A program made the position numbers. This document shows positions 6,001 to 9,000 of a stretch of DNA of 64,000 nucleotides, piece by piece; position 1 is the first letter of the stretch, and every line of letters starts with the position of its first letter. The stretch comes from Escherichia coli. Its GTDB lineage: Bacteria > Pseudomonadota > Gammaproteobacteria > Enterobacterales > Enterobacteriaceae. The stretch is from NCBI RefSeq assembly GCF_045037415.1, contig NZ_CP173440.1. One strand, 5' to 3'.

Positions 6001-9000
6001 AGGAAAAAAATATCCCGGAAAGGCAAAATCCAACAGTTAAGGGGATAGGGCACTACATGGCTACTGTAAAATGTTGTCTTAAACCCAAAAATAAGAGATT
6101 CGAGCATGAAGATAAATATAAAGGATGCCCCATCCAGGTCAGAAACCATAATCCGCAATATTGCTTACGCTGTAAGAGCAACGGCGATAATGACGGAATA
6201 TTATCTGCGCTCATTCCCGGTCGTGTTTTTTTATGTACTGATAGGATTTGCATTAGCATTTGATTCCTCGGAGGTACCTTTGACTACCCTGCTGCAACAA
6301 GGAATGTTAACTAACATTCTGACCTGTTCGGTTTTGGGTAACCTCCTCTGGCTGGGTGTTAATTTGGCATTAAGAGGGGACTCCGTTTTCAAAAACCTGT
6401 GAGCGGCTGATCAACGCTCTCTGTGCCAAAAGTTACTTTCAGAATGACTCGTCAAAAAAGGAATAAATCATGCGCAGCAAAATTAGCAAAACCTCGATCT
6501 CACTTATTTGTCTGATGCTGGTGGCCACCTCTGCGGAAGCAGGGTATAAATCCAATCGGTCTTCCTACAAATCATCCTTCCGCCCATCGACCATTACCAA
6601 GTCGTACAACTCTTCAACCAGAAGCCAGGCAAGCCGCACGGTTAACGATACGCCAGCACCGGCTCGCACCAAACCACTGACCACCAGCCAGAAAGCGATG
6701 ATTGCAGGTTATGGAGCCGCATTAACGGTCGGGGCAGTTTCCGCGTCCTCAGGGAATAAACCGTCAGAGAGCACCACCGGGAAGGTGGAGAACCAGGCTG
6801 GAGGGTATGCTGTTGTCAGTAGTCGACCTCAGGCCAAGGGAGATAACGAAGCCGCTGCTGCAGGCACTACGCCAAAGAAATCAGTGAGCGGGTCGGAGCT
6901 GGTGGCTAAGAAAGGGACTATACCTGCATCAAGTCCAACATCCGAAAAATCGTCGTCTCTCCCGTCGTCTCAGAGCATTCCAGGAAGTTCTGAGCGGGGC
7001 TCTTCATCTGTAAAATTCATCCCACCTTCACAGAACCTTGTAAGTAACATCATAGAGAAAGATAAAAGTAATCATTTCGGTTTCTCGCATCTTGCGATGC
7101 TGTACTGGATAACGAGCAGCAGCAACAGCCATGCATCCTCGCTTACATCCAGCGACAAAGAGTGGATTCAGCAACAGATAGAAGAGCAGGAAAGTAGCGG
7201 TGCAAGCCGCGAGGCAGCTATCAATGAGCTCAAAGCTGCCGGGGTAGATACCTCATCGATGACGGTTGCGGATAACAGCCAACACGCGTCGACTGTCTCC
7301 TTCTCCTACGATATGCCGACAGAATTAAAGGCGGGTAAGGTCTGGACGTTCGTTGTAAATGCCACATGGAATGATAAAAAACAGGCTCCGTCATGCAAGT
7401 TGCAAGGCGCAAAATTTATATCAGACAAAGACAAGTTATACGGCATGTGGAAAGCACCTGAAACTGTCGGGCAGAAAACGCAAATGAAGTGTAAAGCGTT
7501 TGGTGTGGAAGAAATTAAAACGCTGGTGTCTTCCTGATAGTACCATCATTGCCAGCTGCTGGTGGGGATCCATGCGGTTCCCTTTATCGCACATCGTAAA
7601 GTAAGAAAAGACGGTAACTCCACATGAGTTATATGCTATACGAAACTTTTAGGATGCCCCGGTACGACGATTTCCTTAAACAGGAGCCGCAAATGTATAG
7701 CCGTTTCATGAACGATCCACTTGATGAGGAATACCTGGTTTCCCCTGGCATTGTGGGTTCCTATGCTGATGGTGAAATCCCGGCAGAAGAGATTGAGGTA
7801 AGGGAGGCGGTAATACGATTCAAAGTCACAGGCGATCAGGTGTTGTCCATGAACCTGTTCCACAGGCTGTTTCATTACCAGCGTTACAGTGAGGTTAGGG
7901 CATCATTCAACAAAAGCAGGTTAGCGCTGGTGGACGTGGTTAATCGTTCCCCATTCCACAAAGCAGCAATGCGGCGTATCTACAGTGATTTGCCAGAGCA
8001 AAGCATTGCCCGTAGGGTTCTGGTTGATTTCATTGGATAGCGTACGCTGACCGGGAGGAAGTCGTTGCACAATAACGATATGTTTATATGACAGGCATTC
8101 AGATAAATGGAGATGATTATGAAAATAGTATCATTTGTAAAATGAGATAGATTCAATGAAAAATTGGACGACGGTAAAGCCCTTATCCTCGCTGGTTCCT
8201 GTAAAGACGTGAAACCTCTGAACATAGCGAGAAACATCATCGTAAGGTCAACGCCGCTCAATGAGCAAATGGCAGGCTGGTCTGATGAAGAAAAAAATAA
8301 GATTGCACTTGCTGTATACAGCAACAGTAATTTCAGATTCGTATTGAATTGATTTAAGAGAAAGTAACTTTAATTGTCACCGACCATGCCTCATTCTCGC
8401 CGTAGTGATGCTGTTATGCATGCTAAGAGGTAAAAAAACCTGCAGTTAGTGGATGGAAGTATCAACATCAGCATACAGTGCTCTTGATAGACCGGGCTCG
8501 ATCGTAAGCACGTTAATGTATATCTGTCAGGACGTCGCTGTTCATTCCGGGCCCTCCCGGATACGGCGACTCCCCCTGATATCCCGGTCGGCATTCAGCA
8601 CAAAAGGTACTTTTCATCAACGGAACTCACCGAAATAGTCTCATTAATGCGCCACATAATTTCTGGTTGTTTATGAATACCCGATCACCTGAATCTTGTT
8701 GCTAAAGACCCACCAAAAGCACTGGTAACAAAAACTCGCACTAAACATAGTTCCAGACCCGAATACAATGCCGATATAAGACACTTTTTTTAGGGCGCGG
8801 GAAAGTCGCTTTGTTGCATGTTTGAAAAGGGGGCTTTGAGGAGGCTTTCGAATATTTATAATGGGAGCAAGTTCGAACTGCTGGTGGATATGACATGACA
8901 TTTCTCAAATCTCTGGACTCGCCGCCGTTCATCGCAACATATCGTTGGGCGGGGTCATTCGATGGACGGTATATGCCACAGGCATATTCGCTTTTGCTGG

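Follow-up and report, generated by a model that had tools for sequence, protein, structure and literature searches.

LpoB and RcsF are lipid-anchored lipoproteins of the periplasm in which a disordered linker leads to a small globular head, the linkers not being polycationic and Ser-rich; the serine-rich repeat (SRR) adhesins of Gram-positive bacteria (SraP, GspB, Fap1) contain hundreds of tandem SRR dipeptides, are encoded in a SecA2/Y2 and glycosyltransferase locus, and carry an LPXTG anchor. RSP of the IncHI1 plasmid R27 is described as a large immunoglobulin (Ig)-like protein of the Tra2 region, which the plasmid type IV secretion system (T4SS) exports to the cell surface and flagella (PMC6764697); it is required for conjugation in liquid (Huttener et al. 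2019, PMC6764697). Here we describe the gene at 6470..7537 (+) of a 64,000-nucleotide stretch of Escherichia coli DNA (RefSeq assembly GCF_045037415.1, contig NZ_CP173440.1; the whole stretch is the window below), whose product, the target protein, belongs to an unnamed family of exported proteins with a basic, disordered Ser-rich arm and an Ig-like head, found on plasmids wherever the context was examined. It may act in the cell envelope as an accessory factor of conjugation; the sequence-only reading of this stretch had seen in it a surface-exposed or glycosylated adhesin-like protein.

Architecture of the protein

The open reading frame (ORF) starts with ATG, encodes 355 amino acids (aa) and ends with the stop codon at 7535-7537, so that coordinates, strand, start and length are all as first read; no ORF longer than 60 aa overlaps it in antisense or in another frame. 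Its product is identical to WP_058842864.1, annotated as "hypothetical protein", and has the same coordinates as the coding sequence annotated in Klebsiella IncHI1B/IncFIB plasmids. Of the window's 84 ORFs that reach 100 aa, it has the highest fraction of S+T over a span of 150 aa (0.33; mean 0.15, standard deviation 0.05, z = 3.6). The gene has the following parts:

6458-6463 (+): Shine-Dalgarno-like AAGGAA, 7 nt before the ATG, read from the sequence
6470..7537 (+): coding sequence, 355 aa plus stop codon
6470..6541 (+): signal peptide, residues 1-24, MRSKISKTSISLICLMLVATSAEA, predicted cleavage AEA↓G (n/h/c regions, -3/-1 rule, conservation)
6542..7024 (+): disordered Ser-rich polycationic arm, residues 25-185 (AlphaFold2, composition)
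6869..6922 (+): conserved short motif within the arm, residues 134-151, TPKKSVSGSELVAKKGTI
6962..7114 (+): mosaic segment, approximately residues 165-215, in two allelic forms (alignment of four Klebsiella plasmid variants)
7025..7255 (+): helical segment, residues 186-262, four predicted helices (AlphaFold2, family signature motif)
7292..7534 (+): C-terminal Ig-like β-sandwich, residues ~275-355, with the invariant Cys309 and Cys341

The first 24 residues show, by classical rules, the features of a substrate of the Sec pathway and of signal peptidase I: an n-region MRSKISK, a hydrophobic core TSISLICLMLVATS, and a c-region AEA↓G, followed by GYK. Conservation among homologues forms the second part of this call; in 20 homologues (alignment A1), A24 and G25 do not vary and E23 hardly does, and A-x-A sites equivalent to AEA↓G are found even in distant relatives. 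The protein has no lipobox ([LVI][ASTVI][GAS]C with a conserved +1 Cys); Cys14, the only Cys of the signal peptide, lies in the context S-L-I-C, which does not fit a lipobox, and is Ser or Phe in homologues. Beyond the signal peptide the 19-aa Kyte-Doolittle (KD) maximum is 1.25, and there is no second transmembrane segment. As candidates for one, the Gly/Ala-rich residues 75-95 were rejected on account of their peak KD of 1.25 and their absence in distant relatives, and the hydrophobic helix of the family signature motif (see below) was rejected on account of its shortness and sequence setting: it is probably not transmembrane because it is short, is preceded by RERER-type charges on the exported side, and is followed by a disulfide-containing domain. 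With a Sec signal alone, the periplasm is the default destination in Klebsiella; judging from its sequence, the protein is thus probably exported to the periplasm, and would be retained there. The invariant Cys pair in the β-sandwich fits an oxidizing compartment.

The arm is predicted to be disordered throughout (predicted local distance difference test, pLDDT, 29-41) and contains 22% S, 9% T, and 8% P in a patchy distribution, with S+T at 0.20-0.48 per 25-aa block. Its strongest consistent property is positive charge (21 K+R against 8 D+E, net +13, isoelectric point (pI) 10.2). This rule holds in all 20 family members scored, even where they cannot be aligned: their arms have a net charge of +9 to +17 and a pI of 10-12, with 15-36% Ser and hardly any acidic residues, while varying in length and sequence; the folded part is acidic to neutral, with a pI of mostly 4.4-6.9. 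Right after the cleavage site, the arm starts with a conserved G-Y-K-S-x-x-S-S-Y-K-S-S (consensus GYKSSYKSSYRSSYKSS). In the motif at residues 134-151 (family consensus KKSVSGAELVxKKGKI), G141, L144, and G149 are invariant in alignment A1, and K136, K137, S138, V145, K148, and I151 nearly so. All six Ser codons are in use in the Ser-rich region, whose bias is compositional, not repetitive; at a score as low as 30, Tandem Repeats Finder still detects 0 arrays in the ORF, which also lacks direct repeat families. As neither tandem nor dispersed repeats were found, an origin of the region in DNA-level repeats or slippage was rejected.

The folded part comprises a helical module and the β-sandwich. 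With the full-length alignment, AlphaFold2 places four low-confidence helices between residues 188 and 256 (188-197, 205-215, 227-242, and 247-256) and reaches a pLDDT of about 90 for residues 275-355; when residues 190-355 are remodeled with a 28-sequence alignment that includes distant relatives (A3), the helices have a pLDDT of 60-78 and the sandwich of 93-97. The helical segment carries the most conserved motif of the family, its signature ...IIxExxxS..W..LA..YW..S..N...SSLxSSDKxWIxxQI... The C-terminal domain is a seven- to eight-stranded, two-sheet sandwich of the Ig-like/E-set fold class. Numbered after the window protein, S216, L225, D229, and W232 of the helical segment and C309, W327, and C341 of the sandwich are invariant in the alignment of 28 sequences. 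Fold searches return only generic Ig/filamin/E-set matches, and a sequence-profile search of the PDB only noise (a designed protein at E = 0.008, the Ig domain of IL-12 beta at E = 0.2).

The sequence-only reading had proposed a secreted protein with a signal peptide, a Ser/Thr-rich linker, and a globular C-terminal part, and this architecture stands: the signal peptide has canonical n/h/c regions and an AEA↓G site conserved in 20 homologues, and is followed by a long disordered Ser-rich region and a folded C-terminal part. The Ser/Thr-rich region is real, with a length of about 160 aa (residues 25-185) in place of the roughly 200 given at first. Either the lack of a signal peptide or the lack of conservation would have told against that reading; signal features are present, and homologues were found. 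Its placement of the ORF in an AT-rich pocket was mistaken: the ORF has 50.1% GC and its disordered part 54%, at a window mean of 46.7%, and the pocket lies upstream of the ORF, in the stretch 5781-6469 (42.1% GC).

Family, selection and allelic variation

The target protein has no match at E <= 1 in Pfam or NCBIfam, and none in PHROGs or PADLOC; over the protein, its distant relatives, their partner (see below), and the window neighbors, these four collections give nothing at curated thresholds, and a single distant member shows sub-threshold matches to BiPBP_C and Filamin of Pfam. The family is a small one: a word-indexed search of 5.8 billion proteins yielded 23 relatives, all from Enterobacterales (Klebsiella, Citrobacter, Providencia, Cronobacter), unnamed and without a Pfam domain. 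An exhaustive profile search with the C-terminal half, against 1.84 billion representatives, found 33 proteins at E <= 1e-3, among them a distant subfamily of 220-330 aa with the identical order of parts; three long profile matches that extend over multiple stretches (P0032, P0036, P0049) were set aside as probable low-complexity matches. The window ORF has the signature residues and the domain order that define the family; the E-value of the family profile against it (2.7e-54) follows by construction, as the window protein sits in the profile. No paper names the RefSeq accessions, and keyword searches of the literature return only the work on RSP and general reviews.

Two members depart from the common plan in their C-terminal part. 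In P0023, from Providencia rettgeri, an unrelated acidic C-terminus begins at about aligned residue 300, inside the Ig-like domain, a switch that is likely a frameshift or a fusion. P0052 keeps the signal peptide, the Ser-rich arm, and the helical motif, and has two hydrophobic helices in place of the Ig-like domain.

By tblastn in PLSDB, the C-terminal half is present in 530 plasmids, and in 529 of them this half is essentially full-length and intact; 496 of these carriers are typed as conjugative and 31 as non-mobilizable. The 2.3 kb around the ORF are identical or near-identical in 588 plasmid records, including many large Klebsiella pneumoniae plasmids at 100% identity; one example is phvKpST395_NDM1_1657 (IncFIB/IncHI1B/IncR, with a MOBH relaxase and mating-pair formation (MPF) type MPF_F), whose ORF is again WP_058842864.1. 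The gene had been called unusual in this context; hundreds of MOBH/MPF_F plasmids, however, have it in this very position as a fixed part of the backbone.

When diverged alleles from Klebsiella plasmids are compared, the ratio of nonsynonymous to synonymous substitution rates (dN/dS) amounts to 0.2-0.6 for the whole gene and 0.27-0.86 for the arm, and it never exceeds 1. A frame of 355 codons, maintained across about 530 plasmids while dN/dS stays below 1, goes far beyond what chance would produce; purifying selection acts on this ORF, which is a real gene whose arm evolves fast. The mosaic segment at residues ~165-215 occurs in two sharply different forms in otherwise similar Klebsiella plasmids, and thus points to recombination. 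Between the two forms, the block of residues 186-262, which covers most of the mosaic segment, has a dS of 0.42-0.68 and a dN of ~0.22-0.24, and the Ig-like domain is nearly identical; the pattern in P0004 agrees with the two allelic forms.

Plasmid contexts and the Sel1-like partner

All relatives whose context was examined are plasmid-borne. Their replicons are IncT Rts1, rep_cluster_2127 MOBH plasmids, F-like MOBF plasmids, an IncP/TrfA-KorA-KorB plasmid, an IncFII RepA contig, and megaplasmids of Ralstonia and Variovorax. The close subfamily, to which the window gene belongs, is that of MOBH/MPF_F plasmids (IncHI1B, IncT Rts1, rep_cluster_2127); here the gene is found by itself, within long stretches of small hypothetical genes on the same strand, which adjoin hok/sok, higBA, orphan S-adenosylmethionine (SAM) methyltransferase genes, and ParB-like genes. 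A conserved operon partner in these plasmids was rejected, as a single neighbor recurs, and in shuffled position (window ORF 7624-8040, 4893-5234 at locus L010). Small membrane ORFs often adjoin the gene there, but have no homology to each other.

In the distant members, by contrast with this solitary arrangement, a gene for a lipoprotein of ~240-270 aa lies directly upstream at 10 of 11 loci (by alignment or profile), often with overlapping stop and start codons. The lipoprotein is a Sel1-like repeat (SLR) protein, which matches HcpC (1ouv) at E = 3.5e-6 and HcpB (1klx) at E = 1e-3; it is unannotated yet widespread, being found by tblastn in 219 plasmids of PLSDB. SLR proteins are commonly adaptors that bind peptide segments, and their fold class scaffolds complexes. 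The partner genes directly upstream of distant relatives are, by locus:

L002, 9294-10004: Sel1-like partner gene
L003, 9225-9989: Sel1-like partner gene
L004, 6011-6760: Sel1-like partner gene
L012, 6147-6878: Sel1-like partner gene
L013, 6139-6870: Sel1-like partner gene
L018, 4102-4899: Sel1-like partner gene
L019, 4991-5647: Sel1-like partner gene
L024, 7258-8004: Sel1-like partner gene
L026, 1466-2212: Sel1-like partner gene
L027, 179-955: Sel1-like partner gene

F-like MOBF plasmids from Enterobacter, Pantoea, and related hosts have the pair of lipoprotein and target genes within the tra operon, between traB and traV; in the TrfA/KorA (IncP-like) plasmid, the pair directly follows incC-korB. 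The partner profile (A4) matches at L024, L026, and L027, and has no match in the 64-kb window, in Rts1, or at L007, L010, and L020; the window gene is thus not part of such a two-gene module, having no Sel1-like lipoprotein gene directly upstream.

Some further genes were seen near the pair or its upstream member. In the megaplasmids of Ralstonia and Variovorax, the pair adjoins a gene for a bactofilin ("polymer-forming cytoskeletal protein"; L013 5596-5979, L019 2064-2900). An F-like plasmid of Pantoea agglomerans has an rfaH homologue (L018 2966-3499) in its tra operon, right after traB and a few genes upstream of the pair. The IncL/M (MOBP/MPF_I) plasmid RCS51TR717_p carries the Sel1-like lipoprotein (L023 5950-6669) with no detectable relative of the target next to it.

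Possible function

The reading that we favor, tentatively and at a little short of even chances, is that the target protein is a Sec-exported, periplasmic, envelope-associated and non-essential accessory factor of the machinery by which conjugative plasmids are transferred or established. Once the signal peptide is cut at AEA↓G, the protein would stay soluble in the periplasm, where its basic disordered arm would serve as a flexible electrostatic tether or spacer; it could bind anionic components of the envelope (phospholipid head-groups or the inner core of lipopolysaccharide) and, in other plasmids, the Sel1-like repeat lipoprotein whose gene directly precedes that of the target. The helical module and the Ig-like domain would form a head for protein-protein interactions, with the disulfide stabilizing the acidic-to-neutral β-sandwich, and the protein as a whole would aid the envelope-spanning machinery of transfer or establishment as a dispensable accessory. 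The tether role of the arm is what we infer from these features, as is the link to conjugation for the partner-less subfamily of the window.

Several points weigh against this reading. No annotation assigns a function to the protein, it matches no curated family, and its RefSeq accessions occur in no paper. The subfamily of the window is without the Sel1-like partner, the profile being negative in the window and at four MOBH loci. In the window, the neighbors of the gene are hok/sok, toxin-antitoxin, and small hypothetical genes, and the tra genes lie elsewhere; the argument from tra operons is therefore transferred from relatives, and these share just ~25-28% identity with the window protein. 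F-type tra operons often hold dispensable passenger genes, and embedding in one is thus no proof of function. Within the protein, the helical module is modeled with just moderate confidence (pLDDT 60-78), and the protein may also be exported past the outer membrane, for example by the type II secretion system of the host or by the T4SS of the plasmid, the route reported for RSP of R27 (PMC6764697).

Unlikely, though to be taken seriously, is a passenger or host-adaptation gene apart from transfer, which either alters the envelope physiology of the host (stress, plasmid cost) or merely hitch-hikes with the backbone. Such a gene could well stand where the window gene does, alone or with a 98-aa membrane ORF (see below) outside the tra genes, and could lack conserved synteny across IncHI1B, Rts1, and L010, where one shuffled gene is all that is shared; the Sel1-like lipoprotein can moreover occur without the target in IncL/M plasmids, and 31 carrier plasmids are typed as non-mobilizable. 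It is harder to reconcile with the same domain order and charge pattern over at least five unrelated plasmid backbones in two proteobacterial classes, with the purifying selection on the folded parts, or with the presence of the gene inside tra operons and within the central control operon incC-korB, a placement that speaks for a role in the backbone.

We consider it quite unlikely that the protein is an envelope-level exclusion or protection factor, blocking incoming DNA or a second plasmid, donor-specific or other phages, or toxins that act in the periplasm (colicins, type VI secretion system effectors). It matches no family of the TraT/TraS/Eex type, and a search of the anti-phage defense models of PADLOC with the target protein, two of its distant relatives, their partner, and the neighbors in the window gives 0 families. 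The two-allele mosaic and the relaxed dN/dS in parts of the gene do resemble the pattern of conflict genes, but dN/dS is nowhere above 1. The presumed periplasmic location, the plasmid-borne state in every context examined, and the addiction and anti-restriction type of the MOBH neighbors (hok/sok, higBA, orphan methyltransferases) would suit such a factor; to our knowledge, however, the known exclusion proteins (TraT, TraS, TrbK, Eex) belong either to the lipoproteins or to the inner membrane, and none is soluble with a disordered arm. The plasmid pFRI-6 carries the pair alongside an annotated traT and a gene at the position of traS, so the pair is no substitute for classical exclusion, and it was rejected as a TraS/TraT replacement for this plasmid.

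A broader version of the accessory role, in which the family is an unrecognized, widely distributed transfer component for both MPF_F and MPF_T plasmids, appears distinctly unlikely. The Ser/Tyr/Lys-rich arm would here be captured by the Sel1-like lipoprotein in the outer membrane or, in the MOBH subfamily, bind anionic lipids directly; the Ig-like head would dock on the T4SS or on cell-wall machinery, and the apparatus, or the site of entry into the new host, would be organized or stabilized. If this were true, the protein would offer a new drug or antibody target on the epidemic Klebsiella plasmids that are hybrids of NDM and hypervirulence plasmids.

The adhesin reading from which the analysis set out, namely a surface-exposed or secreted and possibly glycosylated protein whose stalk presents the Ig-like head for adhesion, aggregation, or mating-pair formation, is very unlikely. 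Its appeal lies in the combination of a signal peptide, a long Ser-rich region, and a terminal Ig-like domain. This C-terminus is a soluble β-sandwich of 80 aa, however, not an outer-membrane barrel, and the Ser-rich region is non-repetitive and basic, where that of the SRR type is acidic or neutral. The protein matches no autotransporter, intimin, YadA, RTX, usher, or Big family of Pfam even at E <= 1, and the protein and its neighboring genes show no type I secretion signal, usher or chaperone genes, lipobox, or LPXTG. A GT2 glycosyltransferase is encoded 3.6 kb downstream at one distant locus; in the window there are no glycosyltransferase or accessory Sec genes. A precedent may be seen in the exported Ig-like RSP of IncHI1 R27, needed for conjugation in liquid (PMC6764697), but RSP is large and encoded in the Tra2 region, and the available text of its description reports no kinship to the family of the target. 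With neither translocator nor anchor, no adjacent genes for secretion or glycosylation in the window, and no repeats, the description as surface-exposed or glycosylated and adhesin-like finds no support.

That the ORF is spurious or decaying, a chance frame or a pseudogene, as its purely hypothetical annotation, the lack of a domain match, and the low complexity of about half of the protein might suggest, is effectively refuted by its 355 codons with a good Shine-Dalgarno sequence, the intact frame in 529 of 530 plasmids, homologues down to 25% identity with invariant residues, a confidently folded domain, dN/dS below 1, and overlapping antisense ORFs that are all at most 60 aa long.

The practical interest of the gene is that it forms a fixed part of the backbone in IncHI1B/IncFIB (pNDM-MAR-type) plasmids, which are spreading NDM carbapenemases and hypervirulence loci in Klebsiella. 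Plasmid backbones hold many "hypothetical" envelope proteins, and this family provides a concrete candidate, open to test, for an envelope protein accessory to conjugation or plasmid establishment, its repeated placement inside tra and central-control operons being among its consistent features. The analysis also has a corrective value, in that it speaks for abandoning the adhesin reading and for seeing the feature as typical of its context, not anomalous; as a lead it is modest.

Neighborhood of the gene in the window

Immediately upstream of the target gene lie:

5781..6105 (no strand): moderately AT-rich non-coding stretch, the "AT-rich pocket" of the sequence-only reading, GC 0.41-0.45
6106..6402 (+): candidate co-transcribed ORF of 98 aa, two predicted transmembrane helices (hydropathy)

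The 98-aa ORF ends 67 nt before the target gene; four diverged plasmids preserve its frame and show synonymous changes in it. Its annotation is inconsistent: it is absent, "hypothetical", or a spurious "HypD", and is given as a coding sequence in some records; no family of Pfam, NCBIfam, or PADLOC matches it. It may be co-transcribed with the target gene. The promoter presumably sits in 5781..6105, a stretch that has a 92-bp deletion in one plasmid variant (L016). A scan of the upstream gap with the sigma-70 consensus found no site on the + strand, and no terminator consensus was found on this strand either.

Up to the target gene, the order in the window is umuC, an Xre/RES toxin-antitoxin system, hok/sok, a gene for a 324-aa hypothetical protein, and one for a 125-aa membrane protein (-); after it come several genes for small hypothetical proteins and then, on the - strand, NERD, S49 peptidase, DUF4400, TraD, MobH, and MobI. 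The window neighbors of the target gene have no assignment in Pfam, NCBIfam, or PADLOC. An Rfam scan of 2000-10000 gives just hok/sok, 3 kb upstream, and sub-threshold matches. The hok/sok type I toxin-antitoxin system is at 3297-3628 (+), with the Rfam sok match at 96.9 bits (3297-3472) and an annotated Hok toxin just downstream. An RprA-like match at 2431-2532 (-), which overlaps a small hypothetical gene, is sub-threshold (42 bits at a gathering score of 70, E = 0.01) and probably due to chance.

At the far end of the window, at ~49000-64000, the annotation of an identical record shows a plasmid-borne cluster of paralogues of housekeeping genes, among them hemB, dihydroorotase, thrS-like, folE2, dksA, cysS, carbonate dehydratase, zigA, and genes for a GTP-binding protein and a transcriptional repressor. 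The cluster has the look of a Zur-type island of paralogues for zinc limitation.

Comparison with known systems

Several described systems resemble the target protein in one respect or another. The SRR adhesins resemble it in architecture only: Tandem Repeats Finder shows none of their long Ser-rich tandem repeats in the target, LPXTG is absent, SecA2/SecY2 and glycosyltransferase genes are missing among the neighbors, the host is Gram-negative, and the similarity in fold is generic. Components of T4SSs and exclusion proteins (Tra/Trb/Trh/VirB, TraT, TraS, Eex) have Pfam and NCBIfam models, none of which the target matches. Filamin repeats, the C-terminal BiPBP_C domain of PBP1C, and CrdA of Helicobacter pylori have 5-13% identity to it, with scores under curated cut-offs and no shared functional residues; the filamin, E-set, or macroglobulin-type likeness is a resemblance of fold class only. 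The likeness to HcpB and HcpC belongs to the partner lipoprotein of the distant relatives, not to the window gene.

The likeness to LpoB and RcsF is architectural only: a disordered region joined to a folded head suggests a role in reaching across the periplasm or in tethering, while the target has no lipobox and shows no similarity to these proteins in sequence or specific fold. In concept, the nearest system is RSP/RSP2 of IncHI1/IncHI2, in the available text of its description the sole documented case of an Ig-like-domain protein that assists conjugation. The target differs from it in its size of 355 aa, its Sec signal, its polycationic disordered arm, and its place outside the tra block in the window, and the two are likened by description only; for the Big_1/2/3 families, which include proteins of the RSP type, the target has 0 Pfam matches. 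What was known already is a gene annotated as hypothetical in hundreds of records and made of ordinary building blocks; what is new is a coherent family without a curated model, plasmid-borne wherever examined, with a conserved grammar of charge and fold and, as a recurrent partner, a Sel1-like lipoprotein.

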